NCBI GenBank assembly: GCA_963791565.1
Contig: CAWBSX010000004.1
Coordinates: forward strand, 372,601-436,600
Source of the DNA: an uncultured Verrucomicrobiae bacterium
Lineage (GTDB): Bacteria; Verrucomicrobiota; Verrucomicrobiia; Chthoniobacterales; UBA10450
Length of the DNA: 64,000 nucleotides
Reading direction: 5' to 3'
Both the position numbers and the translations under genes were made by a program. This document shows positions 25,540 through 58,727 of the stretch, in pieces (positions within the stretch are counted from its first letter, which is position 1; every line of letters begins with the position of its first letter). The notes beneath the pieces are model-generated. The model worked only from the letters and a program-made list of their open reading frames with translations, was not told the DNA's origin and did no database searches.

Positions 25540-28500
25540 ATGCCGCGGAACAACGAGCTGCGAAAAATTCTCCTCATCGGCTCCGGCCCGATCGTGATCG
25601 GGCAGGGCTGCGAGTTCGATTATTCCGGCGTGCAGGCCTGCAAGGCTTTGCAGGAAGAGGGCTACGAGGTCGTGCTGGTGAACTCGAACCCGGCTACCAT
25701 CATGACCGATCCGGAATTCGCGGACCGCACTTACATCGAGCCGATCACGCCGGAAGTGATCGAAGCGATTCTCGAGCGCGAAAAGCCGGACGCGATTCTG
25801 CCAACAATGGGCGGCCAAACCGCGCTCAACGCCGCGATGGAATTGAATCGCAACGGCGCGCTCGCTAGGCACGGCGTGAAATTGATCGGCGCGAACGCGC
25901 AGGCCATCGCGAAAGGCGAAGATCGCCAGCTTTTCAAGGAAGCGATGTTGCGCATCGGTCTCGACGTTCCGCGCTCCGGCATCGCGCACAATCGCTCGCC
26001 GATGCGAACCGCGTCGCGGACACGATCGGAACTTTTCCGCTCATCATTCGACCCGCTTTCACGCTCGGCGGCACCGGCGGCGGCATCGCCTACAATCGCG
26101 AAGAGCTCGAGGAAATCGCCGAGCGCGGGCTCGCGCTTTCGCCGGTCACGCGAAGTCTTGATCGAGGAGTCGCTCGTCGGCTGGAAGGAATTCGAGATGG
26201 AAGTGATGCGCGACCACGCCGACAACTGCGTAGTCGTTTGCTCGATCGAAAACTTCGATCCGATGGGCGTGCACACCGGCGACTCGATCACTGTCGCGCC
26301 GGCGCAAACGCTGACCGATCGCGAATATCAATTGATGCGCGACGCGTCGTTCGCCGTGATTCGCGAGATCGGCGTGGAGACCGGCGGATCGAACATTCAG
26401 TTCGCCGTCAATCCGGACAACGGCCGCATGGTGGTGATCGAAATGAATCCGCGCGTCTCGCGTTCGAGCGCGCTCGCTTCGAAAGCCACCGGATTTCCCA
26501 TCGCGAAAATCGCCGCCAAACTCGCGGTCGGCTACACGCTCGACGAAATCAAGAACGACATCACGCGCGAAACGCCGGCGAGCTTCGAGCCAACGATCGA
26601 CTACTGCGTGGTCAAAGTTCCGCGCTTCACTTTCGAAAAATTTCCGCACGCCGACCCGACTCTAACGACGCAGATGAAGAGCGTCGGCGAAGCGATGGCG
26701 ATCGGCCGCACTTTCAAGGAGGCGCTGCAAAAAGCGCTGCGTTCACTCGAGATCAAGCGCTTCGGTCTGTGCGGCGACGGCGAAGGAAAAGCGCGTCGAT
26801 CCCGAAACATTGCGTCTCAAGCTCGCCATTCCGAATGCCGAGCGCATTTTCCATCTCGCGCAGGCGTTCCAGGACGGCATGCGATCGACGACGTCTTCGA
26901 GCTGACGAAAATCGACCGCTGGTTCCTGCACAATGTCGAGCAGATCGTGTAGGGCAGAACTGCACAGCTGGCAATCGATCGACTTGCGCCGAGCGAAGAA
27001 GCTCGGATTTTCCGATCGGCAACTGGCGATCGCGCACGGAACTTGAAAGAACAGACGATTCGCGCAACGGCGGAAAGCAGCAGAAAGTCATCCCCACTTA
27101 CCGACTGGTCGATACCTGCGCGGCGGAGTTCGAAGCGTTCACGCCGTATTACTATTCCACCTACGGGATCGAGAACGAGATGCGCCGCGACGCGAACGGC
27201 GCAAGATCATGATTCTCGGCGGCGGGCCGAATCGCATCGGGCAGGGAATTGAATTCGATTACTGCTGCGTGCACGCGGCTTTCGCGCTGCGCGAACTCGG
27301 ATTCGAAACCATCATGGTGAACTCGAATCCGGAAACGGTTTCGACCGATTACGACACGAGCGACAAACTCTATTTCGAGCCGCTCACGCTCGAAGACGTG
27401 CTCAATATTTACGATCAGGAAAAGCCGGAAGGTGTGATCGTGCAGTTCGGCGGACAAACGCCGCTGAATCTCGCGGCCGGTTTGCGCGCGGCCGGCGTTC
27501 CGATTCTCGGGACGCAACCGGAGAGCATCGAGATGGCGGAAGACCGCAAGCTTTTCGCCGCGATGCTGGACAAGCTCGGTTTGCGGCAAACGCCGAGCGG
27601 ATCGGCGGTGAGCGCCGACGGAAGCGATAGCGATCGCGGAACGAATCGGTTATCCAGTGCTCGTTAGGCCGTCGTTCGTCCTGGGCGGTCGCGCGATGGA
27701 ACTGGTTTACAACGACGACAGATCTCGAGCGTTACATGCAGAGCGCGATCGAGGTCAGCTCGGATCGGCCGGTCTTGGTCGATCGGTTTCTCGAAGACGC
27801 GATCGAGGTCGACGTCGATTGCATCGCTGATGGTGAGACTAGCCGTGATCGGCGCGATCATGGAGCACGTCGCAGCTCGCCGGCATTCATAGCGGGGACA
27901 GCGCCTGCGCCATCCCGACTTTTTCGCTCTCGACAAAACGTGCTCGACGGAAATCTCGCGCGCGACGAAGGCGATGGCGCGCGAGCTCGAACGTGCGCGG
28001 GCTGATGAATGTGCAATTCGCGGTGAAAGGCGACGACGTCTACGTGCTCGAAGTGAATCCGCGCGCCTCGCGCACCGCGCCGTTTGTCAGCAAAGCGATC
28101 GGCGTTCCGTTCGCAAAACTCGCCGCCAAAGTGATGACGGGAAAGACGTTGAGCGAACTCGGCTTCACCAAAGAAATTATTCCGAAACATTTTTCGGTGA
28201 AGGAACCGGTCTTTCCTTTCCTGCGTTATCAAGGAAGCGACACTGCGCCTGGGCCCGGAAATGAAATCTACCGGCGAAGTGATGGGCATCGATGCCGATC
28301 TCGGTCTTGCTTACGCCAAGGCGCAGATGGCCGCGCCGCCGCCCTGCCGAAGATCAGGAAATGTTTTCATCAGCGTGAAAGATTCGGACAAGGAAAGCGT
28401 CGTGCCATTGGCGCGTGATTACATCGCGCTCGGTTTCGGGATTATCGCGACCAGCGGAACGGCGGCGATGTTGGCCGCGGTCGGAATTCCAGTGCACCAG

Positions 28501-28750
28501 CGTTTTCAAATTACGCGAAGGCCGGCCGAACGTGCTCGATCGGATCAAGAACGGCGACATGCAGTTGATCATCAATACGCCGAGCGGAAAAATTCCACGC
28601 GAAGATGAAATCAAAATGCGCAGCGGCGCGCGCACATTGAAAATTCCGATCATCACGACGATGCGCGCGGCGCAGGCCAGCGTACACGGCATTGCTTCAC
28701 TGCAGAAAAGCAGTCTGCAGGTTAAGACGTTGCAGGAATATCACCTGTAA
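25540..28750 (+). pseudogene. carB: Carbamoyl-phosphate synthase large subunit, reading frame broken by about 17-19 single-base indels
   Basis: CarB sequence is recognisable end to end, but only by hopping frames. Examples are [30 protein letters not shown]..., [117 protein letters not shown] and REGRPNVLDRIKNGDMQLIINTPSG. Track ORFs 25540, 26238, 27209, 27736, 27993, 28261 and 28415 are fragments of this gene. Confidence 0.85.
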
Positions 28751-28954
28751 ACCCTACCATGCGCCGCCGCTGCAACCGCGCATGAGGACGAGCAAAATAA
28801 TCGTGCCGATAATTGAAACGACGATCGAGCCAAGACAGCCCATGCGGGAGGAAAAGAAAGCGAACATCGCCGCGGAAACGATGGTGGCGAGCGCATCAGC
28901 TGTGTGAAACGCAAAACGCGTGACACCGCGCGCGCTTCGTGTGACAGGTCTCGG

Positions 28955-29596: not shown

Positions 29597-29598
29597 CA

Positions 29599-30483
29599 AT
29601 GTCGGAGGCGAGCACCAACGTCGCATTGGTGCAGATGCAATGCGGGACGGATCCCGCGGCGAATCTGGAAAAGGCGATCGGGTTCATCCGCGATGCGGCG
29701 AAGAGCGGCGCGCAGATAATCTGTCTGCCGGAGCTTTTTCGATCGCAGTATTTTTGCCAATCGGAAGATCACAAATACTTCGCGCTCGCGGAAGAAATTC
29801 CCGGGCCGACCACGGACTCGTTAGGCAAACTCGCGGGCGAGCTTAAGGTTGTCATCGTCGCGTCGCTTTTCGAAAAGCGCGCTGCCGGCGTTTATCACAA
29901 CACCGCCGCCATCATCGATGCCGATGGGAAATTTCTCGGAAAATATCGCAAGATGCACATCCCGGATGATCCATCGTTTTACGAAAAATTTTATTTCGCG
30001 CCGGGCGACTTGGGCTTCAAAAACTGGCCCACACAACGTGGGAATATTGGTGTCTGTGTTTGCTGGGACCAATGGTATCCGGAGGCAGCCCGCCTGACGG
30101 CATTGCGCGGTGCGCAGTTACTTTTTTATCCGACTGCGATCGGATGGCATCCTTCTGAGAAGGAAAAGTATGGTCGCGCGCAATATTCCGCTTGGGAAAC
30201 AATGCAACGCAGTCACGCCATTTCGAATGGTTGTTTCGTCGCAGCCGTGAATCGCGTCGGTTTCGAAAATCCCGCGGGCGGCGACGGCATCGAATTCTGG
30301 GGACAAAGTTTCATGGTCGCGCCGAGCGGCGAAATTCTCGCGAAAGGCAGCGTTGATCGCGAAGAAATCATCCTGGCCGACGTGGATTGGAAACGCGTCG
30401 ATGAACACCGCACGCATTGGCCATTCCTGCGCGATCGTCGCATCGACGCCTACGCAGGCCTCGAGCGGCGGATGATCGACTGA
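29599..30483 (+). CDS. Carbon-nitrogen hydrolase (N-carbamoylputrescine amidase-like)
   Basis: 294 aa with catalytic-Cys context GVCVCWDQWYPE, plus PELF and YRKMHIPD. Confidence 0.85.
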   Translation: MSEASTNVALVQMQCGTDPAANLEKAIGFIRDAAKSGAQIICLPELFRSQYFCQSEDHKYFALAEEIPGPTTDSLGKLAGELKVVIVASLFEKRAAGVYHNTAAIIDADGKFLGKYRKMHIPDDPSFYEKFYFAPGDLGFKNWPTQRGNIGVCVCWDQWYPEAARLTALRGAQLLFYPTAIGWHPSEKEKYGRAQYSAWETMQRSHAISNGCFVAAVNRVGFENPAGGDGIEFWGQSFMVAPSGEILAKGSVDREEIILADVDWKRVDEHRTHWPFLRDRRIDAYAGLERRMID

Positions 30484-30509: not shown

Positions 30510-31058
30510 ATGAAAATCAGCTCCTTCGTTTTTCTTTTCGCGCTCGTTGTTGGTATGAGTGCGCCGTTTGCGGTTGCGCAGGATGTGCAACAAGCAGTCG
30601 CCGTAGTTCAACCGACCGCCAACAGCAAAGTCACCGGCACGATCACGTTCACGAAATCAGCCGATGGTGTGAAAGTTGTCGGCGACATTAATGGCCTCAC
30701 ACCGGGCAAACATGGTTTCCATATCCACGAATTCGGTGATTGCTCTGCGCCCGACGCCACCTCGGCTGGCTCTCATTTCAATCCGAGCAAACACCAACAC
30801 GGTGCGCCGGATGCGAGCGATCGTCATGACGGCGACATGGGAAACATCGAAGCCGATGCTTCCGGCAAAGCACATGTCGATTACACAGATAAAATGATGA
30901 AACTGAGCGGCGCTGATTCCATCATCGGTCATGCGGTGATCGTGCACGAAAAAGCCGATGATTTGAAAACGCAGCCGACCGGCGATGCCGGCGGTCGTCT
31001 GGCGTGCGGTGTAATCGGAGTGGCAAACCCTAACATGTCTCTGCATAGCACTCGTTAG
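30510..31058 (+). CDS. sodC: Periplasmic Cu/Zn superoxide dismutase
   Basis: Start at MKISSFVFLFALVV. It has GFHIHEFGDC and GDAGGRLACGVIG. The stop is the TAG of the motif copy at 31051. Confidence 0.9.
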   Translation: MKISSFVFLFALVVGMSAPFAVAQDVQQAVAVVQPTANSKVTGTITFTKSADGVKVVGDINGLTPGKHGFHIHEFGDCSAPDATSAGSHFNPSKHQHGAPDASDRHDGDMGNIEADASGKAHVDYTDKMMKLSGADSIIGHAVIVHEKADDLKTQPTGDAGGRLACGVIGVANPNMSLHSTR

Positions 31059-31348
31059 GCGCCACTCAGACACCCCTGAACGCCGCTGTTCCGTAACTGT
31101 CTAATATCGCAGTTCTTTGTTAGTGCTGAGCGGATCCGCCTGGGGCGGATTCGACGGGGGACCCAAATTTCGCGCAAGCGATCGGGGCGCATGACGCTGC
31201 GGCGTCAGGAGCACTTGGTGGCTCTAGCCCGACAGCTAACTCCGTAAGCGAAACACCGAGAGCAGGGAGCGATTCCTGAGTCTCAAAAAAAGTTCGCCTT
31301 CCGCAAATAGTGCGAGCGCAAGCCGCAAGGCTTTAGAAGGAGATAGTC

Positions 31349-32653
31349 ATGAATGCCGTCAGGAAACTGGTGGTGTTTGTGGTGCTCGTGTCGGTCGCGA
31401 TTGCGATCGAGCGGGCGTGGTTAGGTGCAGTGCAGCCGCAAATCGCGACGCGGGTCGCGGTCGAGCAGCTCAATGGAAACGACAATGCGTTTCGGCAACT
31501 GCGTTTGTTCGAAGTGTTCAAGGACATCGCGGATGGCGTCGTGGTCATCGCAGCGATCGGACTCGCGTGGTGGCTTGTCGCCAAACCGGCCAGCACGCGG
31601 CGCGATTGGCCACGTTTGATATTGATCGGCGCGTTGCCGCTCCTGGCAATGAGCGGTTGCGTGCGGCCCTTCGACACGCCGGAATATGCGGAGATCAATA
31701 CCTCCGAGACGGGATTCCTTATTCCGCTCGAAGGCGACAGCACCGCGCAGGCAAAATTCCAATCGGAAGAATATCTGCGCGATTTGAAAGTCGCAGCCAA
31801 ACGCGTGCAGATCACGCATCGTTGGTCGCAGGAAGGACGGCTGCCGGGAAACGGCCGCTGGATTCCGACCGTGCGTTTGATCAAAGTGAATCGTTCGCCG
31901 ATCACGCGCGAATGGACAGCGGAAGCTACGACCGGCACGGCGGCGAAGAACCAGGCCATCTGGATCGAGAGCTCCGATAGCGTCGGATTCAGTATGGGAT
32001 TTACCTGCACTGCTTTCATTCCCGAAGAGCAGGCGGCGAAATTCCTGTATTGGTATCCGAGCGGCTCGCTCTCGGAAGTGATGGATGCCGAAGTGCGCGG
32101 CCGTATTCAACAAGTATCGGCTGAGATCGCGGCGAAATATCCGCTCGACGCCTTGCGTGCACGCAAACAGGAAATATCCGACGCGGTGAAGACTGACGTC
32201 ACGCAATTCTTCGCGCAACGCGGTGTTGTGATCACGACCGTCGGAATGTTCGGCGGCATGACCTACGAGAACGGCGAGATCCAGAAGGCGATCGACAACA
32301 CGATCATCGCACAACAGCTCAAAGTGGTGAACGAAGCGAAATGGGAAGCACAACAGCGCGATAACGATCGCGTAACGCTCGAGGCAAACGCAGTAGCGGA
32401 ACGGGCGCGGCGCATTGCCGCTGGCGAAGCGGATGCGAAAAAAATCGCGGCTGATGCCGAAGCACAGTCGATTCGCGAAGTCACGAAAGCTCTCGCGGAC
32501 GCCAAAGAGAATCCGTTGCTCTATCAACTGCGCGCGCTCGAAGTAGAACGCGCCCGAGTCGAACACTGGAACGGTCAATACCCAAGCTGGTTCATGGGCA
32601 CCGCGGCGAGTTCGCCGAATCTGATGCTGCAAATGCCCGCGCCCCCGCGCTAA
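31349..32653 (+). CDS. SPFH/band-7 domain membrane protein
   Basis: 434 aa with AGGAG 7 nt upstream, N-terminal helices, and a coiled Ala/Glu-rich region (AERARRIAAGEADAKKIAADAEAQSIREV) typical of SPFH proteins. Confidence 0.6.
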   Translation: MNAVRKLVVFVVLVSVAIAIERAWLGAVQPQIATRVAVEQLNGNDNAFRQLRLFEVFKDIADGVVVIAAIGLAWWLVAKPASTRRDWPRLILIGALPLLAMSGCVRPFDTPEYAEINTSETGFLIPLEGDSTAQAKFQSEEYLRDLKVAAKRVQITHRWSQEGRLPGNGRWIPTVRLIKVNRSPITREWTAEATTGTAAKNQAIWIESSDSVGFSMGFTCTAFIPEEQAAKFLYWYPSGSLSEVMDAEVRGRIQQVSAEIAAKYPLDALRARKQEISDAVKTDVTQFFAQRGVVITTVGMFGGMTYENGEIQKAIDNTIIAQQLKVVNEAKWEAQQRDNDRVTLEANAVAERARRIAAGEADAKKIAADAEAQSIREVTKALADAKENPLLYQLRALEVERARVEHWNGQYPSWFMGTAASSPNLMLQMPAPPR

Positions 32654-32662
32654 GTTGTCGAT

Positions 32663-33688
32663 GTGGAATTGTTGACCATCGGCGAAATCAGGCGACGCGC
32701 GCAGAACGGTTTCGTTACTGCGCGCGTTCATGTGCAGATCAGTGCGGCAGAAGCGAAGGCAACCCGCGAAGGAAAACCCTACTGCGAAATGACGCTGGCC
32801 GATGCGCGCGATCGCATGACCTTGCGCGTCTGGAGCGATCATCCGGAATATCGCGCCTGCGAAACATTACAAGCTTCCGAGTTCATCGAGATCAGCGGAG
32901 AATTTGCGCAGCACCAGCAATTCGGACTCGAGGCGAAGCAGTGGAACGTTCGTCGCCTAACGAGTGATGAAATCGCCGACCTGCTGGCCGGCCCGCCGGA
33001 GTTGCGCGCGAAACAAACCGCGGACTGGAGTCTGATTACGGAACGAATCAAAACGATCGGCGATCCTCGTCTGCGCGCGTTATGCGAAGCGTTCATCACG
33101 GAATTCGGCGAACGATTTCGCCGTACCGCGGGCGCGCGCAGTTATCATCACGCGCGCCGCGGCGGATTAGTCGAGCACGTCGCGCAGATGTTGCGCACGG
33201 CCGATGCGCTCGCGCCGCTTTATCCGCAATTGAATCTCGATCTCCTCATCGCCGGAATTGTTTTTCACGATTCCGGAAAACTTTGGGAAAACCATCTGCC
33301 GGAAGATGGCTTTACCATGGGTTTCGACGAGCGCGGCGAATTGATGGGGCACATTTCGATCGGGATTGAGCTGGTCAATTCGCTCTGGCGCAAAGTGAAT
33401 TTGCCTAACGAGTGGAATGGCCTGTCGCCCGCGGCTGAAGATGTGCGGCTGCATCTTTTGCATTTGATCGGCGCGCATCATGGCGAGCCGCAATTTGGTT
33501 CGCCGGTTAGTCCGAAAACTCCGGAGGCGATGGCGCTCAACTACATCGACAACCTCGACGCTCGTCTGGAGATGTTCGCCGCGGGATATCTCGTGGCGAA
33601 ACCAATCGCCGATCGAATTTTTGATCGCGTCCGGCCTTTGCCCGGAAATTTGGTCAAGCCACTGGAAAAATTTTCGCCGGCGAACTAA
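32663..33688 (+). CDS. OB-fold plus HD-domain phosphohydrolase (YhaM-like 3'-5' exoribonuclease family)
   Basis: 341 aa. The N-terminus has an OB-like segment (KATREGKPYCEMTLADARDRMTLRVW). The HD domain shows HHARRGGLVEHV and FHDSGK. Confidence 0.65.
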   Translation: MELLTIGEIRRRAQNGFVTARVHVQISAAEAKATREGKPYCEMTLADARDRMTLRVWSDHPEYRACETLQASEFIEISGEFAQHQQFGLEAKQWNVRRLTSDEIADLLAGPPELRAKQTADWSLITERIKTIGDPRLRALCEAFITEFGERFRRTAGARSYHHARRGGLVEHVAQMLRTADALAPLYPQLNLDLLIAGIVFHDSGKLWENHLPEDGFTMGFDERGELMGHISIGIELVNSLWRKVNLPNEWNGLSPAAEDVRLHLLHLIGAHHGEPQFGSPVSPKTPEAMALNYIDNLDARLEMFAAGYLVAKPIADRIFDRVRPLPGNLVKPLEKFSPAN

Positions 33689-34413
33689 TTGCCCGGCGGG
33701 CCCTGCGTGGCAATGACCATTTGATTGCCCTGCAGGGTGATCGTCTTCACGTTCGGCCAAAACGTGTGCTGATTATTTTTTCGCAAGCTCTCCCCGAATC
33801 CAGTGGTGAAGCTACGACCGAAAGTTGACGCGAATGCGCGTAGGAACCCCCCCGTGATTTGATGACCATTCGCTTCGATCCATTCCGGATCGAAATAAAA
33901 ATTGTTATCGTCGTAACTGAATCGGAGGCGGGTACTGCCGTTGAACCAACGCTGTTTCATCGAGGGTAGCGGAGCGGCATTTAGCGGCACACTCACTTCC
34001 AGTGTCGCCATCGAATCCGCGAGGGCGACGTGCATTCTGTTTTTGCGACTCGCGAAATCCGGATGGCGTGCAATCAGCGCGTTCAGGTCATCGGCGGTGA
34101 AAGCAACCGTGCTTGCTTGATTGGTGGCGAGCGCGTTTTTCAGCTGCGCGAACTTGGCGCTGGCCGCGTTGAATTCGCCATCAGTCGGCATCGTAATCTT
34201 AGTGTCGATCGGATCAGCCGTGGTTAGTTTTTTGACCGCTCCCAGGTAAAGAAACCAACATGCGCAAACGAGAATGATGCAGCCGACAAACGCCGCAAAG
34301 AGGACGCTGAGGCAGCCGCCCGCGAAACAACCGCAACCAGAAGGCTTGGGCGGCGGAAGAACGACTTGCTGTTGCGGAGCTGCGGGCGCGGGAACTGGCG
34401 GCGGCGTGTCCAT
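33685..34413 (-). CDS. Membrane-anchored hypothetical protein
   Basis: 242 aa with a Pro-rich N-terminus and a Cys-rich hydrophobic helix (GCGCFAGGCLSVLFAAFVGCIILVCACWFLYL). No family recognised. Confidence 0.5.
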   Translation of the reverse strand: MDTPPPVPAPAAPQQQVVLPPPKPSGCGCFAGGCLSVLFAAFVGCIILVCACWFLYLGAVKKLTTADPIDTKITMPTDGEFNAASAKFAQLKNALATNQASTVAFTADDLNALIARHPDFASRKNRMHVALADSMATLEVSVPLNAAPLPSMKQRWFNGSTRLRFSYDDNNFYFDPEWIEANGHQITGGFLRAFASTFGRSFTTGFGESLRKNNQHTFWPNVKTITLQGNQMVIATQGPPGN

Positions 34414-34468
34414 CCGTCCCGTTTAACTGCTCGTTAGGCGCGAAGAAAGCTCTTTTGTTGGCGTGGCG

Positions 34469-34503
34469 AATAAAGAAAAAGCGGCGGTCAATTCGACCGC
34501 CGC
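34469..34503 (-). terminator. Rho-independent terminator of rpoA-rplQ (palindromic, potentially bidirectional)
   Basis: A 9-bp GC-rich stem pairs GCGGCGGTC (34481-34489) with GACCGCCGC (34495-34503). On the minus strand it is followed by TTTTTCTTTATT (plus-strand 34469-34480). Confidence 0.8.
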
Positions 34504-34537
34504 TTTTCTGAACATTCTGCCTAACGAATGGTTACAA

Positions 34538-35011
34538 CTACTCGTTAGTCTCTTTCGATTTCTTGCTCTTCGGCGCAGGCTTCGAATCGGCCGCGCTCTT
34601 CTTGGATTTCGCCTTCTTGGTTGTTTCTGCCGTTTCCGGCTCATCGACAACGACTGCGGCATCGACCCATTCAATGAACGCAACCGAAGCAGAGTCGCTC
34701 TTGCGTTGACCGAGCCGGACGATGCGGGTGTAGCCGCCTTTGCGATCAGCCGAGCGCGGAGCGATGTCGTCGAACAGTTTCTTCACCGCATCCGCCTGAC
34801 GCAACGTGGCGAGCGCAGTGCGTCGCGCGTGCAGCGAGCCTTTCTTTCCCAGCGTCACCATTTTTTCCGCGAGCGGGCGAACCGCTTTCGCTTTGGCGAG
34901 CGTCGTCTTGATGCGGTGATGTTCGATCAAGCTGCAAACCTGATTGGCCAGCAGCGCTTTTCGATGCGCGGCGGTCAGGCCGAGCTTCAAGGTTTTCTTC
35001 TGGTGTCTCAT
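34538..35011 (-). CDS. rplQ: 50S ribosomal protein L17
   Basis: 157 aa. MRHQKKTLKLGLTAAHRKALLANQVCSLIEHHRIKTTLAKAKAVRPLAEKMVTLGK, with a Lys-rich tail. Confidence 0.95.
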   Translation of the reverse strand: MRHQKKTLKLGLTAAHRKALLANQVCSLIEHHRIKTTLAKAKAVRPLAEKMVTLGKKGSLHARRTALATLRQADAVKKLFDDIAPRSADRKGGYTRIVRLGQRKSDSASVAFIEWVDAAVVVDEPETAETTKKAKSKKSAADSKPAPKSKKSKETNE

Positions 35012-35031: not shown

Positions 35032-36072
35032 CTATTCGTGATCAGCCGAGCCATTCATGCTCGCGCCGTCCACACCGACCGGGACTTCCACCAAACCTGG
35101 ATCGAATTTCATCCCAAGACCAAGGCCGAGCTGTTGCAGCTTGTCCTTGATTTCGTTGAGCGATTTTTTGCCGAAGTTGCGATACTTCAGCATCTCAGCT
35201 TCGGATTTTCTGCGCGAGCTGGCCAACCGTGGTGATATTGGCGTTGTTCAAGCAATTGGCGGCGCGGACACTGAGTTCGATTTCGTTCACGCTCATATTG
35301 AGAAGCTTCTTCAGCTTCATGTTTTCCTCGGAAACACCGGCAGGCGTTTCGTCGAACTCGATCACGTCTTCGTTGAAATTCACGAAAACATCGAGGTGAT
35401 GGCGCAGGATCGCCGAGGCCTGGAGCAACGCATCATCTGGCGTGAGACGACCGTCCGTCCAGACTTCGAGGACGAGCTTGTCGTAATCGGTCCGCTGACC
35501 GACGCGGGTGTTTTCCACCGCATATTTCACGCGCGTAACTGGCGAGAAAATGGAATCAATTGGAATAAGACCAATCGGTTGGTCGGCACGCTTGTTCTCG
35601 TCGCCCGTGGCAAAACCGCGGCCGACGCGCACTTCCAGTTCGGCATGTCGAACTTGTGCTTCTTGTCGAGAGTGCAGATGAGCTGCTTCGGATTCAAAAC
35701 CTCGAACCCTTGCGCGAGCTGAATGTCGTGCGCGGTGACTTCGCCTTCTTTGTTGACCGCGAGCGAGAGTTTGCGCGGCTCGTGTTCCGCGGCCTTGAAT
35801 TTGATCCGCTTCAGGTTGAGCACGATGTCGGTCACGTCTTCGACCACGCCGGGCAGAGTAGCGAATTCATGTTGCGCCCCGGTGATTTTCACCGCGGTGA
35901 TGGCGGCGCCTTCGAGCGACGAAAGCAAAACTCGGCGGAGCGAATTTCCGACCGTGTGACCGTAACCGGCTTCAAACGGCTCGGCGACGAACTTGGCGTA
36001 GGTTTCTGTGGAGCCGTCCTCAACTTTGGTGAGGGTCTTCGGCATTTCAAAACGACCGTATCTTACTGGCAT
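35032..36072 (-). pseudogene. rpoA: DNA-directed RNA polymerase alpha subunit with two single-base frameshifts in this sequence
   Basis: The gene is covered by three track ORFs (35527-36072, 35195-35632, 35032-35226). The N-terminal domain reads GHTVGNSLRRVLLSSLEGAAIT. The middle reads ELEVRVGRGFATGDENK. The C-terminal domain reads [20 protein letters not shown] then [23 protein letters not shown]. The frame breaks lie at about 35641-35643 and in the T4 run at 35206-35209. Confidence 0.9.
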
Positions 36073-36666: not shown

Positions 36667-36673
36667 TTCGATT

Positions 36674-45061: not shown

Positions 45062-45075
45062 TTCAAATCAGCGCC

Positions 45076-47022: not shown

Positions 47023-47071
47023 CTTTCCTTTTTTCTGGTCTCGTTAGGCGCGCACTGCCACTCTCCGCCGC

Positions 47072-47587
47072 ATGAAGATTTTCCTCGGGATTGTTATCGC
47101 CCTGCTGGTCCTCGCTGGTGGCGCTTATTTCTACGCCTCGTCGTTGCCGGAACAGACCACGCACACGCGCAGCATCACGCTCCAGCAATCGCCCGCCGCC
47201 GTCTTCGCCTTACTCACCGACATGGAGAACATGCCGAAGTGGAATCGCAACATGGAGAAAATCGAAATACTTCCGCCGATCGACGGCAAAGAAGCGACGC
47301 GTCAATACTTCAAGGGCAACATGCAGATGACCATCATCACCAGCGAGAGCACACCGCCGTCGCATCTCGTGCGCACCCTGGGCGACGCGGGCGGCCCGTT
47401 CTCCGGTTCGTGGACTTACGAAATCAAACCGACGAACGGCGGCAGCGACGTCGTGCTGACGGAAGATTCCCACATGAAGAATCCGCTCTTTCGTTTGATG
47501 ACGAAGATTTTCGGCGAAACGAAATATCTCGACGAACATCTCGCAGACATGGCCAAGCACTTCGGCGAAACGGCTACTATTCGTTAG
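47072..47587 (+). CDS. SRPBCC (START/polyketide-cyclase-like) family protein
   Basis: 171 aa with an N-terminal helix. LLTDMENMPKWNRNMEKIE is typical of the SRPBCC/CoxG-like fold. Confidence 0.55.
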   Translation: MKIFLGIVIALLVLAGGAYFYASSLPEQTTHTRSITLQQSPAAVFALLTDMENMPKWNRNMEKIEILPPIDGKEATRQYFKGNMQMTIITSESTPPSHLVRTLGDAGGPFSGSWTYEIKPTNGGSDVVLTEDSHMKNPLFRLMTKIFGETKYLDEHLADMAKHFGETATIR

Positions 47588-47601
47588 GCAGCTACTTCGC
47601 T

Positions 47602-49684
47602 TTACACCACTGGTCGACCCACTCGTTCACGGTCTGGTACCACAAAACCGGAATTCTGTGGCTTCAGGACCCAATGCCCTTCGTCGGGGAAGTAGAGGAA
47701 CTTGGACGGCACTTTGAGACGCTGCAGCGTGGTGAAAAGCTGCATGCCTTCCGCGACATCGAGCCGGTAATCGAGCTGACCGTGCACGACCAGCGTGGGC
47801 GTTTTGAATTTGTCCGCGAACAAGTGCGGCGAAAATTTCCGGTAAAGCTCGCGCTGTTTCCACGGCGGGCCTTTGAATTCCCATTCGTTAAACCAAAGTT
47901 CCTCCGTCTCGCCGTAGGCCGACTCGGTATTGAAGACGCCGTCATGCGAAACGATGCACTTGAAGCGATCGGTGTGGCCTAACAACCAGTTGGCCATGTA
48001 GCCGCCGTAGCTCGCGCCCATCGCCGCTTCGCGCGTTTTGTCGATGAACGGATAAGTCTTTTCCACGTAATCGAGACCCTTCATCAAATCTTCATACGGC
48101 TTGCCGCCCCAATCGCCGCTGATCGCGTCGCAAAATTTCTGTCCGTAACCGGTCGAGCCGTGGAAGTTGATCATGACCACTACATAACTGCCGGTTGCCG
48201 CGAAAAGTTCGGCGTTCCAGCGATACGTCCACGAATTTCCCCACGCGCCTTGCGGACCGCCATGAAGCAAAAACTTCAGCGGATATTTTTTCGACGCATC
48301 AAACCCCGGCGGCTTGATGATGAAGCCCTGCACATCATCGTTATTCGCGCCTTTGAAGGTGAACGACTCTATCGGCGGCATGTCGATTTGTGACAAGAGC
48401 GCATCGTTTACATGCGTAACCTCTGTGACCGCGGGATTCGTTCCGCTCGGCGTCAGTGGAGAAGCTGTTGCGAACCATCGGCGAACTTTCAGGCTTACAA
48501 TCTCATTCGGCACCTCGATCTGAGATATGCTCAAGTACAGACTGTCGGCATCTCCGCCAAAGGCGAGATCATCCGCGTGGCCCATTCGCACAAGCTCAAG
48601 CGCTTTGTTTGTCGCGAGCGATAAAACATAAATCGGCGACATGCCGTGATCCTCGGCGCTGAAGAAAATCGTCTGCGAATCCGGTGCCCAAGCAAAACTG
48701 CCTAACGAACGGTCGAAATCCGCCGTTGCATTTCGCATTTGTGCGGACTGCCGCTGATAAACGATGAGCGATTGCTTATCTGCTTCGAAACCGGCGCGCG
48801 CCATTGATCGCCAGGCGATGTGGTTTCCATCCGGCGAATAGCGCGGCGTGTTGTCGTTACCGGGGCTGGTGGAAATTTTCTTGGGCGACCCGCCGGTGAT
48901 CGGGACGAGAAAGATGTCGTTGTTCGTGCTGGTCGCGCCGACTTCATCGATGTTGCTGGTGTAGGCAACTTCCTGTCCGTCGGGGGAAATGGCGTACATA
49001 TCCGCACCGCCGAGATTGAATGGCGGCACATCGTGATCGCCCGGCGTGATGTCGCGCACAGTCCCCGCGCCGCCGGTGCTAATTACGAAAAGATGGCTGC
49101 GTTTGAAATTCAGTGAACGAAGTCCAATGACGATAAAGCAGTGAGGTGAAGATTTTTGCCTTCACTTTGCTTTTCTCGATTTTCTCGTCGCGGTCCTTGT
49201 TGCAGGCGTCGTCTTTGCAATCGGGAAAAACGGAGGAAACAAAGACGATATTTTTCCCGTCCGGCGACCAGATACCGCCGTCCGCGCCGGTGGAAATATT
49301 CGTGACCTGATGCGGTTCGCCGTCGAGTCCGCCGCTTTCCGGCGTAAAATTGCACATCCAGATTTGCGTCGGATCGGTTGCCTTCGAAGTCCAGATCAAC
49401 TTGGTGCCGTCGGGCGAAAAGCGCGGCCGTTCCTCCTGGTTCTCCGTTTGATTCAAGCGCCGCGCGTCGCCGCCGCTGGCCGGCACAATCCAGAGATGTG
49501 TCTTCTTCGTGTTCGCCGCCAGATCCACATCGACCGCGTCGAAGACAACCCATTTCCCATCGGGCGAGGGCGCCAATCCACCGACGCGTTTCAATTTCAT
49601 CATGTCTTCGAAGGTGAACGGGCGCGTTTGCGCAAAAGACGTGGCGACGAAAAGGAAAACGAGCGTGGGAATTCGGAAGTGCAT
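47602..49684 (-). pseudogene. S9-family serine peptidase (beta-propeller plus alpha/beta hydrolase), one frameshift
   Basis: Track ORFs 49079-49684 (signal peptide plus propeller) and 47602-49059 (GASYGGYMANW, HGQLDYRLD, FPDEGHWV) join if 1 nt is removed near 49104: ...HWTSFTEF / KRSHLFVISTGGAGTVRDITPGDHD. Confidence 0.85.
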
Positions 49685-50690: not shown

Positions 50691-53600
50691 ATGGTTTTCC
50701 GATCCCCCCGCGCTGGCTGGAAAGCGCGGTCGATCATTGCCGGTGGCTTTTTTCTTTTCTCACTCGGCTCCGCCTGCGCGGCGCCAGATTACAGCAGGGA
50801 CATCGCAGTGTACGATCGATTCCTCGCCCAGGTAAAATCGGACGACGAAATTGTGCGCTTTGGCGATGTGGGACTTACGCCAGCGCAGCTACGCACCTTT
50901 CGAGAACGACTCGTTAGGCTACAAGGCGCCGCCGAAAAAGGCGCCGCGATCGAACCGGACGTGGTCACGCCCGCCGGCACAACCTTCAAGTGGCCGAGCG
51001 GAAATGTTTTCTACCGTTTCGATCCGTCGCAGGTCACGGCCGGGACCATTACCTCGGCGAAGATGCAGGCATTTCGCGATGGCATCGCGGAATGGGCCGC
51101 GTTCGCTAATTTGCATTTCAACGAATTTACCGGGACGCCGCCGGCGAATTACATCACCGTCCAGCAAAACACCACGGGCAACGAAGGCGGCTTCTCCTCA
51201 TCGGTAGGAATGGCGGGTGGCGAACAGTTTGTGCAGTTCGGTCCGAACAGTTGGAATCGCGGCACGGTTTGCCACGAAGTCGGTCACGCCATCGGCCTCT
51301 GGCACGAACAACAGCGCCCCGATCGCGACACTTATGTCACGATCAACTTCAGCAACATCGATCCCGCGCAGCAGGGCAACTTCACCATTGTCGCAGGCGG
51401 GCAGACCTTCAGCACCGCTTACGATTTTTACTCGGTGATGCATTACCGGCGCGCTGACCTGACCAACAAAATGGGCACGCCCAATCCGAACGCGCCCGAT
51501 CCAACCATCGACACCGTGGATCCGAACGCGCCCTATCTGTTTTTCCTAAACATCATGGGCAACGTCTATGATCGGACCTTGAGCAAATCCGATCGCGCCG
51601 GCATGGCGGCGATCTACGGAAATCCGTCACCGCTGCCGGGTGCCGTGGTCACTAATACAAACGACAGCGGCCCGGGAAGTTTGCGCAGCGCGATCTATTA
51701 CGCCTTCGATCGCTCGACCGACGCAGTGCCGACCCCGACGACGGTGACATTTCACATTCCGACCAGCGATCCGAACTACAACGCCAGCACCGGTGTCTTC
51801 ACCATCAAGCCGACATTCCTGCTCGTGGCGCTCGGTGCTGGCACGACCATCGATGGCTCTTCGCAAACTGCATTTACTGGCGACACGAATACGAGCGGAC
51901 CCGAGATCGCGCTCGATGGATCGCAAATTGCCGGGCAAGGACTCGGCCTCTTCGCCTCCGGGATTCCCATTCATGACAGCAATTGCACGATCAAGAATTT
52001 GATCATTAACGGATTCAATCAGAATGGCATCGTCCTCGACGGCACCCGCGCCGCGCTCTTTGGTACTTCGGCGAACGGGAACGTCATCACCGGTTGTTAC
52101 ATTGGAACAGATCGGACCGGCACAGTCGGCGTGGCCAACACATTTCCCGGCATCGAACTTCTCGGCGGCGCATCGAACAATACCATCGGCGGCCTAACGA
52201 GTACTTTGCGCAACATTATTTCCGGCAACGCCAGTTACGGCATATCGATGCACGACGCCGGCACGAGCAATAATTTGATTGAAGGAAATTACATTGGGAC
52301 AAACGCCGCCGGCGCCGGCGCAGTCTCGAACGCGGCCGCGGGCATAGGAATTTTCAACGGCGCAAACCACAACACCATCGGCGGAACCACCAGCACCGCG
52401 CGCAATCTCATTTCCGGCAACAAGGGGCAGGGCGTCCAGATTTTGGATTCCGGCTCCAACGCCAACGTCATCGCTGGAAATTACATCGGCGTAAACGTGA
52501 GCGGAAACAGCGCCCTGGCCAATGGCTTCTTCGATCCGCCTAACGAGTCGTTTTCTTCCGGCGTCGATATCTTCAACGGCGCGCAAAACAATGTGATCGG
52601 CGGCACCGCACTCGGTTCGGGCAACGTCATCTCCGGCAACGCCGCTTACGGCGTCGGCATTTCCAATTCCGGCACCAATGGCAACATCGTCCGTGGAAAT
52701 CTTATCGGCGTTGGCGCCAACGGCACGACCGCCATTCCAAACGGCAACGCCGATCCCGGCCATATGCCGTTTCCGGTTTTGTTCGCGGGCGTGGGAATCT
52801 TCGGCGGCGCCTCGAACAACATCATCGGCAGCGCCGGTTCCGGTAATGTCATCTCCGGCAACGCTGCGCAAGGTGTCGTCGTCTCCAATAGCGGCACGAA
52901 TGGCAACGTTATTTCTGGAAATATTATCGGTCTGAATGCGTTCGGAAACAGCGCGCTGGCCAACGGCTTTTCCGGCATCGGAATCTTCGGCGGCGCACAA
53001 AACAACACCATCGGCGGCCTAACGAGTAATGCCGGCAACATTATTTCGGGCAACAGCAATCAGGGGATCGCCATCAGCAACAGCGGCACCAACGGCAACG
53101 TTGTGCAGGGAAATTTCATCGGGGTGAACAGCGGCGGCGGAACGGCTTTCCCGAATGCCTTCGAAGGCGTGGCTATTTTCGGCGGCGCCTCCAATAACAC
53201 GATCGGTGGCCTAACGAGTAGTGCGCGCAACATTATTTCCGGCAACACCGGCGCGGGAATTTCCATCGGCAACAGCGGCACCAACGGAAATTCGGTGCAG
53301 GGAAATTACATCGGCACCGATGCCAACGTGTACCACTGCGGTCGGCAATGTTCCCGAAGGCGTGAGTATTTATAACGGCGCTCAGAACAACGTCATCGGT
53401 GGCGGTGCCGGTGCGCGTAATGTCATCTCCGGCAATGGCGCGCGCGGCGTGGGAATTTTCGACGCTGCGACAATGAACAACACCGTGCAGGGAAATTACA
53501 TCGGGCTAAATACGAACGGGAACGCGGCCATTCCGAATAATTTTTCCGGCGTGGAAATTTATCTCGGCTCCAACAACACCATCGGCGGCACGACCGGCAG

Positions 53601-54678
53601 TACGCGCAATTTTATTTCCGGCAACAACGATCGCGGCGTGCTTATCGACGGCGCCAACGCGAGCGGAAATGTCGTGCAAGGAAACACCATCGGCCTTGAT
53701 ATTACCGGCACCGCGCGACCGAATGGAAATACCGGCGTGGAATTCTTCACCGGTTCCCACGCGAACACGATCGGCGGCAGCGCGTTTGGCGCGAGCAATC
53801 AAATCGCGAGCAACACGAACGATGGTATTCGGGTTTACGACAGCGGCACCGACGGCACCAACATGATGGCGCTCCTTGGGAATTCCATTTTCAACAACAG
53901 CGCTCTCGGAATCGATTTGCTCTACGGCAATAGCGGTCCGCAGCATCCGAACAATCAGCAGGCCGCGCCGACCTTGAGTTCCGCGGTGCTCGGCTCCGCC
54001 AGTAACATCAGTGGCACCGATGTCAGCGGCACGTTGAACAGCACGGCCAGCACAACTTTCCGCATCGAATTTTTCGCCAGCCCGGGCGGGACGAGTCAGG
54101 GGAAAAATTTTATCGGTTCAACTAGTGTGACCACGAACGGTTCTGGTTCCGCTTCGTTTGCTTCGCTGCATCTCGCCGCCGCCGTTCCGATCGCGCCCGT
54201 GCAAAGTGGCGGCAGCGTGATCACGGCGACCGCGACTGATCCAAGCAACAATACGTCGCAATTTTCCGCACCGGTTGCGGTAACTGCGACCGATAGCGGT
54301 GGCGCGGGAATTCCCGATAACTGGATGGTTGCACACTTTGGCCCCACTTGGCAGACGAACCCGAGCGCAGCGCCGAATGCGGATCCGGACGGTGACGGCC
54401 TAACGAATGCTCAGGAATTTCTCGCCGGAACCGATCCAAAATCAGGTGGCAATTCGCTGCACATCACGGCCATCGCGCGCAGCGGCATAGACCGGCTCGT
54501 CGCCTTCGCTTCCGTGACCGGAAAAACTTATCGCGTCGATTACAAAGATGATCTGCTCAGCGCGAATTGGATTCTGCTGCAAGATCAACTCAACGCCACA
54601 GGCAACAGCACACAAATCACCGACACTGGCGCGGGAAATCTCGCCCGCCGTTTTTATCGCATCGCGCTCGATCAGTAG
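50691..54678 (+). pseudogene. Giant secreted astacin-like (M12) metalloprotease fused to a long parallel beta-helix repeat region, one frameshift
   Basis: It has the signal-like MVFRSPRAGWKARSIIAGGFFLFSLGSACA, the zinc site HEVGHAIGLWHEQQRPDRD and the Met-turn SVMHY. More than 25 repeats of the type NNTIGG(L)TS.ARN.ISGN...G..I...GT.GN.V.GN.IG follow. There is a DPDGDGLTNAQEF Ca-binding-like segment. The two track ORFs join if the T at about 53329 is removed (GTDANG TTAVGNVPEG). Confidence 0.8.
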
Positions 54679-54729: not shown

Positions 54730-55813
54730 ATGGAGTGCCCGTTTAATGGCGAACGGCCGGTGCAGTATTACGGCGATTATCTCGGGTCGAAAAACTCCTC
54801 GAGCTACAGAAGCCGCTCAGCCTCAAAGAAGGCAAGCTCATCGCCCACGATGAAATGCTCTTCATCATCATCCACCAGGCCTACGAACTCTGGTTCAAAC
54901 AAATCCTGCACGAGTTGATGGCGTGCGGCGAAGTTCTCGAGAAACCGGCGGCGGACGATGACGGCCCGGACATGAACGTCGTCGTGCATCGTTTGAAACG
55001 GACCGTGGAAATTTGGAAACTTTCAACCATCAGGTAGACGTCCTGGAAACAATGACGCCACTCGATTTTCTGGAGTTCCGTCGAAAGCCTCCAAGGCGCC
55101 TCGGGTTTTCAAAGCACCCAATTCCGCCAGATCGAAGCGACTCTCGGCTTGCGGATGGAGAACGTTTCCGGCCGGATTACTACAAGCACACCGAGATGGG
55201 TGGCTTTAACGAGGCGGACTACCAGAGATTGTCGAGTGCGGAAAAGGGCGAGTCCTGTTGCGAATGGTGGAACGGTGGTTGGCCCGCATGCCATTCTTCG
55301 ACGAATCCTTCTGGCAAAAGTGGGATGGCGAAGAACGGACCGGCCAACCCGGTAACGGCCAAATTTTGGAACCACTACCGAAAACTTTACGAGCAAAGTC
55401 TTTCCGAACGCGATGAAAAAAACGACTTTTAGGCAAATTCGACGCATGTTTTTCGAGGAAGGGCCCGGGCGATTTCTCCGCCGCCCGCTTTGCGGGCCGC
55501 GCTTTTCATCATGCTCTATCGCGACGAGCCGCTCTTTCGTTTGCCCTTCGCTCTGCTTAACAGCTTGATCGAGATCGACGAACAGCTGGCCAACTTCCGT
55601 TATCGCCATCTGCAGATGGTGCGGCGCATGATCGGCACAAGGGTCGGGACTGGTGGAAGCAGCGGCGAGCAATACCTGCAAGGCGCGGTAAATAAAAACT
55701 ACGTCTACAAAGAACTGGCCGGCGTCATCACGTTCCTGATCGAGCGACGAAATCTGCCCGCGCTGCCCGCGCGTTTGCATAAGGCGCTCCGTTTCAGTTT
55801 CGCGGAAGTCTAA
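54730..55813 (+). pseudogene. kynA: Tryptophan 2,3-dioxygenase, reading frame broken about 10 times
   Basis: TDO sequence is recovered only by frame hopping. Segments are YYGDYLG / EKLLELQKPLSLKEGKLIAHDEMLFIIIHQAYELWFKQILHEL / VDVLETMTPLDFLEFR / GASGFQSTQFRQIEATLGL / RPDYYKHTEMGGFNEADYQRL / LLRMVERWLARMPFF / ALRAALFIMLYRDEPLFRLPFALLNSLIEIDEQLANFRYRHLQMVRRMIGTRVGTGGSSG. Confidence 0.75.
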
Positions 55814-55828
55814 CGAGTAGTCGAATCC

Positions 55829-56641
55829 ATGGCCGAAACAGATTACGTCCTCGGCACGCACGATGAAGAAGTCGCGCGGCTCGGCCTGCAACATCGCGTC
55901 TGGCGACCGGTCGTGACCGAATGCTGGCAGCGCGCCGGCATTACCGACGGCTGGCGCGTCATCGACATCGGCGCAGGACCGGGTTACGCCACCGCTGACC
56001 TCGCGGAAATTGTCGGACCGACCGGCGCTGTTCTCGGCATCGAACGCTCGGCGCGTTTTCTCGAAGCCGCACGCGATCGTTGCGCGCGTCGCGGCCTGAC
56101 GAATGTCAAATTCCGCGAGAGCGACCTGATGGAGCTCTCGTTAGGCAATCTCAATTACGACGCCAGCTGGTGTCGCTGGGTCGCGTCATTTGTTTCATCG
56201 CCGAAACTCCTGGTCGAAAAAATTGCCGGCGCCTTGCGCAAAGGCGGCATCGCCATTTTTCACGAGTACAGCGACTACGAAACGTTTTGCTTCATGCCGC
56301 TTCGTCCGGCGATCGAAAACTTCCGGCGCGAGGTCGCATCGAGCTGGCGCGCCAGTGGCGGCGAACCCGATGTCGCGCGTCAGTTGCCGGGACTGCTGCG
56401 CGACGCGGGAATGCGCGTGCGCGAAATCCGGCCGCGCGTCATCACCATTTCACCGCACGATTATGCCTGGCAATGGCCGGCGAGCTTCATCGAGATTAAC
56501 GTCCTGCGTTTACAGGAGCTCGGTCGCCTAACGAGTGAACAAGGCGCGGAGGCCTTGCGCGAATTTCACGAAGCCAATGCTGATCCCGAGTCCTGGTTCA
56601 CCACGCCGATGTTTCTCGAAATCGTGGCGGAGAAAAAATGA
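55829..56641 (+). CDS. Class I SAM-dependent methyltransferase
   Basis: 270 aa with motif I VIDIGAGPGYAT. The stop overlaps the next start (ATGA). Confidence 0.8.
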   Translation: MAETDYVLGTHDEEVARLGLQHRVWRPVVTECWQRAGITDGWRVIDIGAGPGYATADLAEIVGPTGAVLGIERSARFLEAARDRCARRGLTNVKFRESDLMELSLGNLNYDASWCRWVASFVSSPKLLVEKIAGALRKGGIAIFHEYSDYETFCFMPLRPAIENFRREVASSWRASGGEPDVARQLPGLLRDAGMRVREIRPRVITISPHDYAWQWPASFIEINVLRLQELGRLTSEQGAEALREFHEANADPESWFTTPMFLEIVAEKK

Positions 56642-57893
56642 AACGACTGCTCGTTTCGTTTTTGTTGTTCACTGCGATCGCTCGCGCCGACCAGCCTATC
56701 CTGTTGAAACCAGCCGCCGTTTTCGACGGACAGGAAATGCATCCCGGTTGGTCGGTCTTGATAAATGGAGACAAAATTTCTGCGGTCGGGCAGCGGATGT
56801 CTCCGCGCCGGCGGACGCGCGCACGATCGAGTTGCCTAACGAGACCTTGATGCCGGGAATGATCGAAGGTCATTCGCACATGTTCCTTCACCCGTACAAC
56901 GAGACGAGTTGGAACGAGCAGGTGACTAACGAATCGTTGGCCTTGCGCACTGCGCGCGCCACTGTGCATGCGCGCAAAACTTTGGAAGCTGGTTTCACCA
57001 CCGCGCGCGATCTCGGGACGGAAGGCGCCGGTTATGCCGATGTCGGACTGAAGCAGGCGATCGATAGCGGAATTATTCCCGGTCCGCGTCTCATCGTGGT
57101 TACGCGCGCGATCGTCGCGACGAAAAGTTACGGGCCGAAATACGCGAGCGAACTCGACGTTCCGCAAGGCGCGCAGGAATGCAGCGCCGTCGATGAATGT
57201 ACCCGCGTGACGCGCGAGCAAATCGGCAAAGGCGCGGACTGGGTGAAGGTCTACGCCGATTATCGCTGGACGCCTAACGAGTCATCGCGCCCGACATTTT
57301 CGCAGGAAGAATTAAATGCGATCGTGCAGACAGCTCGTTCTGCGGGTCGGCCGACTGTGGCGCACGCCACAACCGCGGAAGGAATGCGTCGCGCGATTAA
57401 CGCCGGCGTGGACTCCATTGAGCACGGCGATGAAGGAACCGCGGAAGTGTTCCGTTTAATGAAACAAAAAAACGTCGCGTTTTGCCCGACGGTCGCTGCG
57501 GGCGATGCCGTCTCCCGTTATCACGGCTGGAAAAAAGGAACGGATCCGGATCCACCGCGCATCGCGCAAAAACGCGCGAGCATGAAAGCCGCGCGCGAAG
57601 CCGGCGTGACCTTTGCGATGGGCGGCGATGTCGGCGTTTTCACTCATGGCGAGAACGCGCTCGAAATGGAATTGCTCGTGCACGAGTACGGCTTCACGCC
57701 TCTGGAAGTGTTGCGCCAGGCGACGAGCGGCAACGCCGCCGTGTTCCATCTCACCGACCGAGGACTCGTTAGGCCAAATTTGCTCGCCGATCTCGTGGGT
57801 GTGGAAGGCGATCCGACGCGCGACATCGATCTTGTGCGCAAAGTAAAGTTCGTCATGAAAGGCGGGACAGTCGTGCCTTTGCCTAACGAGTGA
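56638..57893 (+). pseudogene. Secreted amidohydrolase (metal-dependent, imidazolonepropionase/Xaa-Pro dipeptidase-like), one frameshift
   Basis: The true N-terminus is MKRLLVSFLLFTAIARADQPILLKPAAVFDG...INGDKISAVG (track ORF 56638). It continues as ADVSAPADARTIELPNETLMPGMIEGHSHMF in the frame of track ORF 56535, with 1 nt missing near 56791-56793. Confidence 0.8.
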
Positions 57894-58727
57894 TGGAAAC
57901 ACCCGACGCTCTCCCGCCAAAACCAAAACGTTGGCCGGTCGCGCTGCTGGTCGGCTTCATCAGTGCGATCATCGGCGCGGCGATCTCCGCGCCCGTCTCC
58001 GACTGGGCGATGCAGATGCATCACGTTTCCGCGCGCGAAGGCGAACGCGGGTATGCGGTCATGTGCCTCTGGATACCGCTTGCGTTTGTCATCTGTTTCG
58101 TCGCTGGATTTGTCGTTAGTCTGCTAATCAAGCGCAGCGGTTTCGTCGGTTATTTGCTGCGCCAAGGTGCGGCGCTCGCCATTGTTCTATTTTGGTCGGC
58201 GATCGGGCGCCGTTGGTTACGCCACCGCCGATCATCCGCCGTTGGTCGATGGAAAAAATCTCGCGCTCGAAATCGAAGTGCGCGTGCCACGCAAAGGTCG
58301 ATCCATCGAAGATTTGAAAAAAGCCGATTTCAGTGTTGCGCTCGTCGTCTCAAATTCCGATCGCAGTTATTCCGACATGCGTTGGACGGAAGCGAGCGAG
58401 TCTAACGAAACCATCACTATTCCCGCCTGGGCCAATTTGAATTCGCGCAACGCTGGCCGCGAAATCACCGCCGGCATAAAAGATGAGAACCGGCAAATCT
58501 TTAACGTCATGCGTCGCGCCTCGCCTGCGATCGATGAAGCCTGGTCGGAATGGGAACCGCCGCGCGAGCGGTTCGATGGCAGCAAGCCGGCGCCGGGAGA
58601 TCAATATCAGGTTCGCTATCGCGTGCGTTTCGCGGGCGAATACTCACCGACCCCGCGACCGACGCTTACTTACGAGCCATCGACCCCGGAAGAAACGGCG
58701 TCGCCTAACGAGTCGTCGTCGCCATAG
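57890..58727 (+). pseudogene. Membrane protein with C-terminal soluble domain, probable single frameshift
   Basis: Track ORFs 57890 and 58167 join at about 58208, where there is an extra C. The third TM helix is then complete across the junction (GAALAIVLFWSAIG/AVGYATADHPP). No family recognised. Confidence 0.5.

Follow-up and report, generated by a model that had tools for sequence, protein, structure and literature searches.

The window analysed here, a stretch of 64,000 nucleotides of contig CAWBSX010000004.1 from an uncultured Verrucomicrobiae bacterium of the order Chthoniobacterales, holds 32 insertions and deletions (indels) that break reading frames. They lie between positions 25990 and 58208 and concentrate in two genes, carB with 17 events and kynA with 8. 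We propose, with a probability of about 75%, that these indels are consensus (polishing) errors of a metagenome-assembled contig, most likely one made from long reads only, in which co-aligned reads of related populations were blended, and that they are not mutations of the organism. The result holds no biological discovery, and its value is one of data quality. Annotation pipelines would call such genes pseudogenes or fragments and so lower the apparent completeness of the genome, false auxotrophies would be implied (here in pyrimidine and arginine synthesis and in the kynurenine pathway), and the blended sequences enter phylogenetic trees.

The tally combines a protein-to-DNA alignment that permits frameshifts, written for this analysis and giving positions concordant across several references, with DNA alignments against relatives. 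The carB gene, for the large subunit of carbamoyl-phosphate synthase (25540-28750, forward strand), is broken into at least 8 open reading frame (ORF) fragments. We took as its events the gap columns found only in the window in a MAFFT alignment with 14 relatives. They extend from 25990 to 28495 and comprise 13 insertions of one base (26150, 26782, 27066, 27084, 27615, 27719, 27840, 27873, 27934, 27949, 27988, 28251 and 28495), three insertions of two bases (25990-25991, 27043-27044 and 27190-27191) and a sole one-base deletion (26881). An apparent insertion of three bases at 26954-26956, which may be several single events, is kept outside the 17. The gene was repaired under the guidance of the alignment, as plain removal of the MAFFT columns loses the frame in a variable linker, and the repaired CarB has 93% identity over its full length to the CarB of L002, a locus from a metagenome-assembled genome (MAG) built from Illumina reads. 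The kynA gene, for tryptophan 2,3-dioxygenase (54730-55818, forward strand), is also fragmented, and the stitched protein matches homologs of about 360 amino acids at 75-83% identity. Its 8 events, five deletions and three insertions, lie at 54786, 55021, 55081, 55163, 55223, about 55333, 55429 and 55477; the same number is obtained with each of four protein references, and a DNA alignment was made with loci L161, L162 and L163. Three-frame translations of carB and kynA both switch between frames.

The scattered events fall in five other genes. In rpoA (35035-36072, reverse strand; 96.6% identity to the RpoA of L002) there is a one-base insertion at 35210 and a two-base insertion at 35642, found in the DNA alignment too. 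The S9 peptidase gene (47595-49684, reverse strand) has one extra base at 49108 and another, a run of four Ts for three, at about 47645-47649. An astacin-domain protein (50691-54678, forward strand) has one +1 frameshift in an ORF overlap at 53221-53375, placed at about 53325 by alignment to the 1119-residue homolog of L163. An amidohydrolase (56635-57893, forward strand) has two extra bases at about 56792, by frameshift alignment to the homologs of L083 and L084 and by DNA alignment, and a membrane protein of about 278 residues (57893-58727, forward strand) has one frameshift at 58202-58208, recovered as one event with each of five references; the stitched membrane protein is 96-100% covered by homologs of about 280 residues. 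Apparent indels relative to L002 at 21449, 36087/36119 and 38179/38222 are intergenic and were left out of the tally. The preliminary description of this DNA, made from the sequence alone, had counted about 34 indels, with about 18 in carB and about 10 in kynA. Both clusters stand, at the slightly lower counts given here, and the first and last events it named coincide exactly with ours. It was right about the two indels in rpoA and about the single ones in the astacin, amidohydrolase and membrane proteins; in the S9 peptidase it had the event at 49108 and overlooked the C-terminal one at about 47649.

The claim that the indels are clustered, and not uniformly spread, is borne out. The carB gene has 17 events where 1.6 are expected (Poisson P = 2e-12) and kynA 8 where 0.54 are expected (P = 1e-7), and the variance-to-mean ratio over 1-kb bins is 5.65. 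Outside the clusters there are seven scattered single events, about 0.12 per kb or one indel per 8 kb. As a negative control region we used the four genes of the ADOP family (Acidobacterial duplicated orphan permease; 10981-20863, forward strand), which are intact: each is a single-stretch match to TIGR03434, from position 2 to 803 of its 803 positions. Under a uniform rate the probability of no event in this 9.9-kb block would be 0.005. All other genes previously listed as free of indels are likewise intact, as judged from alignments to relatives, contigs of the Logan collection and family profiles. The glmM gene is full length, and frameshift alignment gives zero events in the NtrC-like regulator, the GT39-like and the other genes that can be aligned to relatives. 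The sulfatase gene (45076-47022), the 478-codon GT39-like gene and the FAD/Fe-S enzyme are uninterrupted ORFs without a close relative for alignment; independent Logan contigs align gap-free to the first two, and most of the third is covered by matches to its families. The ORFs in the first 10.9 kb (1-10.9 kb) contain full-length Pfam domains.

Insertions outnumber deletions by 25 to 6 overall, and by 16 to 1 in carB. Errors in homopolymer length do not account for this: just 4/13 of the one-base insertions in carB lie next to the same base, whereas 43% would if placed at random, and the kynA deletions are mostly outside runs; the four-T run at about 47649 is one of the exceptions. Instead, the inserted bases look like second alleles. 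For each carB insertion, after optimal placement, we asked whether the inserted base is an allele found among the 14 relatives at an adjacent column. This is the case for 13 of 13, compared with 46% of 3000 simulated random insertions treated by the same procedure (p = 4e-5). Examples, with the two alleles in brackets, are AC[G][C], GA[C][G] (twice), GA[C][A], GT[C][G] and CT[C][G]; the last two and GA[C][G] fall at third codon positions. The two-base insertion at 25990 reads AA/TCG where relatives hold either AAT or TCG. In loci of other MAGs assembled only from Nanopore reads the same test gives 17/19, and the combined result is 30/32 (p ~1e-7).

The carB cluster is also unusual in its substitutions. 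Were reads of other lineages mixed into the consensus, common alleles should have displaced some of the lineage-specific ones. We performed a relative-rate test against the majority of 23 outgroup sequences, chosen by means of the neighbouring CN-hydrolase gene and hence unbiased for carB. Over 25990-28495 the window has 112 unique differences to 206 for L002 (p = 1.5e-7), and 106 to 224 for another relative, L001 (p = 7.5e-11), while L001 and L002 are symmetric with each other (175 to 151). The control genes are symmetric as well, with 63/71 for the DEAD helicase, 29/23 for SufE, 27/33 for the PPIase, 55/48 for the CN-hydrolase and 31/35 for the HD-domain gene. The carB cluster has thus lost about half of its lineage-specific substitutions. 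The carB of the window is the most consensus-like of the 15 aligned carB sequences, and its best-matching relative shifts along the cluster. A mosaic with one specific donor lineage is unsupported, since the best relative varies among many lineages. Reads from a conspecific strain would bring in the same lineage-specific alleles, and so the blending of carB points to reads from other lineages that aligned over this long conserved gene. The kynA segment is probably a chimeric consensus too. Both the stacked alleles and the asymmetry of relative rates can be computed from sequence alone, and they could be used to flag blended segments in catalogues of long-read MAGs when the reads are not at hand.

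Similar lesions occur in relatives according to the technology by which these were sequenced. We scanned 23 loci of Nanopore-only MAGs (the Microflora Danica set) and 26 loci of Illumina MAGs from the same clade with reference proteins derived from Illumina assemblies. The Nanopore loci give about 80 events, the majority +1 and many of them grouped in one gene or region, with 5 events in L017, 7 in L033, about 19 in L034 and 11 in L066. In the Illumina loci there are about 21 calls, almost all of them single and at the ends of ORFs, which look like noise of the scan. The frame of carB is broken in 6/15 Nanopore loci versus 1/30 Illumina loci (Fisher p = 0.003), and the protein cluster to which the 152-residue carB fragment of the window belongs also includes fragments from other ENA assemblies, in which the breaks lie at different positions. 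The related Nanopore MAGs come from soils of high microdiversity. Their reads, all of them Nanopore, were assembled by metaFlye at a minimum read coverage cut-off of 8 and polished by a single Medaka round without any short reads (PMC12313526). The contig of the window presumably originates from such a Nanopore, metaFlye and Medaka pipeline. Among the causes that the preliminary description had proposed, that of collapsed strain variants is the one favoured by the stacked alleles, by the blended carB and by the occurrence of broken genes in Nanopore and not in Illumina assemblies; the sequence is indeed metagenome-derived. As an observation in its own right, patches of +1 frameshifts of several kilobases are present in public Nanopore-only MAG and assembly contigs of the clade, with up to about 19 events in 6.6 kb (L034, 2965-9600; L033, 13-1489; L017, 16462-17262; L066, 160-9051). 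Such patches are widespread in that data set. L161 has its S9 peptidase and astacin genes in fragments.

A different kind of interruption is seen in the carB genes of the order. Many Chthoniobacterales CarB proteins (1300-1384 residues) have an in-frame insertion of about 270-320 residues, several of them with a transposase domain of the IS200/Y1 type (RayT, PF01797). The insertion splits the oligomerisation domain that lies between the synthetase halves, and is found in L003, L005, L017, L018, L054, L056, L068, L069 and L073 and in proteins P0191 and P0270. The CarB of the window (linker at 26950-26985) is without it. It is unusual for a transposase domain to stay in frame within an enzyme in many genomes. 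Among the short-read loci, frame changes in carB occur only in that of the Illumina MAG L057 (5151-9133), at the borders of such an insertion, which may be out of frame there or a true insertion of a mobile element.

The mechanism that we propose would operate as follows. Reads of related populations that have no contig of their own would align to the nearest assembled homolog, and would do so only over stretches that are long and conserved enough. The haplotypes piled up together could be those of coexisting strains and, for carB, were evidently also those of other Chthoniobacterales lineages. In the pile-up, a substitution difference between haplotypes could be rendered as an insertion beside a deletion, and a haploid consensus caller would then keep both alleles in the sequence (a stacked allele, +1 or +2) or, more rarely, neither of them (-1). 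The expected outcome is a frame-breaking patch restricted to the blended segment, while segments covered only by the organism's own reads would be nearly clean, at about one indel per 8 kb, with the scattered single events as ordinary residual error. The Flye assembler is known to merge strains that are 97.6-98.65% identical into a single consensus (PMC8302730), and R10.4 assemblies become near-finished only at about 40x coverage (PMC9262707).

Independently built Logan contigs give a partial view of the same population. Three contigs of run ERR11523670 match the window, and together they cover only one indel event. L165 is 100% identical over 30629-34960 (4.3 kb). L166 covers 58309-60373 with three differences (58478, 58954 and 60028), all at synonymous third codon positions, a sign that close strains, about 0.15% divergent, occur together. 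L167 covers 44960-47764 without gaps and with two differences, and it carries the extra T of the window at about 47649, the C-terminal event of the S9 peptidase. This event, four Ts where the relatives imply three, breaks the conserved ending WYQTVNEWVDQW. The two differences of L167 lie in and beside a GGTACC site, 3-10 nucleotides from the extra T (47639-47649), and in the conserved frame they would turn a conserved WY into RD; they may represent a local haplotype or a modification-related miscall. The C-terminal event itself is either real or a read-level error common to both assemblies. No same-strain Logan fragment of CarB or KynA appeared among the homologs, in lists of 90%-identity cluster representatives ordered by score in which short fragments do not surface.

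Several observations weigh against an origin in blended reads. The sequencing technology of the source contig is read from its error signature and from the pattern of deposits, and the mixed pile-ups and the recruitment of foreign reads are steps that we infer from the sequence. The kynA cluster is biased to deletions (5 to 3), and the relatives available for its DNA alignment are three distant, non-sister ones. The relative-rate test has some noise, given that the indel-free rhodanese gene is weakly asymmetric in the same direction as carB (50 to 78, p = 0.017) and SOD in the reverse direction. Nor can the clusters be predicted from conservation alone, since genes about as conserved, such as glmM and those of the DEAD helicase and rhodanese, are clean. 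In the other Nanopore loci carB has about 0.23 events per kb and other genes about 0.19, so carB is not a universal hot spot, as its event rate elsewhere is about that of other genes. Finally, the C-terminal S9 event recurs in L167.

Other artefacts account for less of the evidence. Patches of low coverage or noisy reads, in which one or a few long reads lie behind the consensus and raw errors survive polishing with no mixing of haplotypes, are the first option that the preliminary description had in mind. Nanopore-only assemblies below about 40x do keep gene-truncating indels (PMC9262707), the seven scattered events, at about 0.12 per kb, resemble such a background, and kynA mixes insertions with deletions. 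We still regard this as unlikely and as a poorer fit, since raw noise should bring substitutions at a similar rate and the repaired CarB shows no excess of them. The insertion bias in carB, with no tie to homopolymers, departs from the homopolymer indel profile of Nanopore data (PMC9262707), and neither the stacked alleles (30/32, against about 50%) nor the halving of lineage-specific substitutions in carB is predicted. Raw Nanopore reads, moreover, are biased to deletions. It is quite improbable that the indels are systematic base-calling errors at DNA-modification motifs, where methylation distorts the Nanopore signal and the miscalls outlast polishing. The 8-mer CGACGGAA is common to two insertions (27615 and 27949), one kynA deletion takes the A of a GATC, and L167 differs at two bases in and beside a GGTACC site next to the C-terminal S9 event. 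No motif, however, is common to the 32 contexts, and such errors are expected across all 64 kb and not just over 2.5 kb and 0.7 kb. Methylation-driven base-calling errors are mainly substitutions, and the blended carB would be left unexplained. The clustering and the indel-only character of the changes seem artificial at first sight, as if the sequence had been edited after deposition, deliberately or by accident. The public record refutes this for the events that it documents and leaves it a negligible probability overall. In exact-sequence look-ups, ten intact ORFs of the window are found unchanged on a single public contig (613,444 bp, from NCBI and ENA), and so are the exact frameshifted products of carB (470 and 152 residues), rpoA (181 residues), the S9 peptidase (201 and 485 residues) and the astacin protein (894 residues). 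The indels were thus part of the deposit, which excludes the deliberate alteration that had once been suggested; besides, randomly planted bases would fall at stacked-allele sites in about 46% of cases, and 13/13 do so.

That the indels are present in the deposited sequence is equally what one would see if they were real mutations, as recent pseudogenes or as subpopulation alleles from a localised process that generates indels, perhaps rescued by frameshifting or slippage in expression. The event at about 47649, which recurs in L167, speaks in the same direction. We consider real mutations very improbable, and the preliminary description had also ranked artefacts above a localised mutational process, a ranking supported by the artefact evidence given above. 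Both rpoA and carB are essential or nearly so and single-copy, and 17 indels in one gene would have to coexist with strong conservation: between the repaired carB and that of L002 the ratio of nonsynonymous to synonymous substitution rates (dN/dS) is 0.062, and for the pair L001-L002 it is 0.057. The repaired CarB deviates at 5/715 near-invariant columns in a comparison with 97 homologs (control proteins, 0-5), and four of these five columns adjoin repair sites. The repaired kynA translation has no internal stop. The only in-frame TAG of carB (26950-26952) is on an indel site, with GT[G]T AGG in the window and GTT AGG in L001, and it is best read as the product of that indel. These values leave no sign of relaxed selection, in agreement with the earlier observation of no added substitutions or nonsense codons, and the argument then made against natural decay holds: core genes are hit, dN/dS is low and there is no excess of substitutions, and so we reject pseudogene decay. 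We found no slippery or homopolymer motif common to the sites. The Illumina MAGs of relatives are intact, the Nanopore MAGs are broken at differing, non-conserved positions, and mutation does not predict that inserted bases should be the alternative alleles of a neighbouring site. Programmed ribosomal frameshifting and transcriptional slippage are rejected too, given the heterogeneous contexts, relatives that are unshifted at these positions and carB genes that break at other positions elsewhere. A narrower version, that the soil population truly carries some or all of these indels as alleles, produced by an insertion-prone mutational or recombination process localised on carB and kynA and with expression rescued by recoding, appears extremely improbable; the C-terminal S9 event is the sole direct hint in its favour.

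The indels described here resemble several known systems and coincide with none of them. With the residual indels of Nanopore-only assemblies, as revealed by the IDEEL test, they share frame breaks of one or two bases in conserved genes that are absent from the short-read assemblies of relatives. They differ from residual indels of the homopolymer type in that only 4/13 tested insertions in carB touch a homopolymer, in the bias to insertions and in a 10- to 20-fold clustering in two genes. With strain-collapsed metaFlye contigs, which Strainberry and similar tools address, they share the merging of related haplotypes, which leaves carB more like the family consensus than the carB of any real lineage is. 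There the collapse is genome-wide, whereas here it appears local (2.5 kb and 0.7 kb, in single genes), seems for carB to involve other lineages, and manifests itself in stacked-allele insertions and not in mosaic single-nucleotide polymorphisms. As in the pseudogenes of genome-reducing bacteria, several frameshifts occur within a recognisable gene; unlike in those, there is no load of nonsense or missense changes, dN/dS is 0.06, the genes are essential and the short-read genomes of relatives are free of the lesions. As in programmed frameshifting and in the transcriptional slippage of endosymbionts, the frame is interrupted and the protein is conserved on both sides, but here there is no slippery heptamer or long poly-A/T run, a gene has as many as 17 sites, and relatives do not share the positions.

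The lineage of the window follows from its CN-hydrolase gene (29599-30483), for which a scan of species-representative genomes returned only soil MAGs of Verrucomicrobiota/Chthoniobacterales, the best two at 94% protein identity. L002 is syntenic with the window from 19.6 to 42 kb, at 85-90% nucleotide identity, and L163, from a metagenome of the Joint Genome Institute, is syntenic for much of 41.9-58 kb. A metagenome scan with the methyltransferase gene beside kynA gave 80 loci, none of them syntenic for kynA. The ADOP permeases occur here in Verrucomicrobiota as four tandem full-length copies, so that their name could mislead guesses about taxonomy; an acidobacterial origin, which these genes might suggest, is rejected by the CN-hydrolase scan. 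Lastly, a cyclic di-AMP (c-di-AMP) riboswitch (RF00379; 31114-31265, forward strand) is found full-length at 53.7 bits, upstream of an SPFH/Band_7-like ORF (31349-32653).

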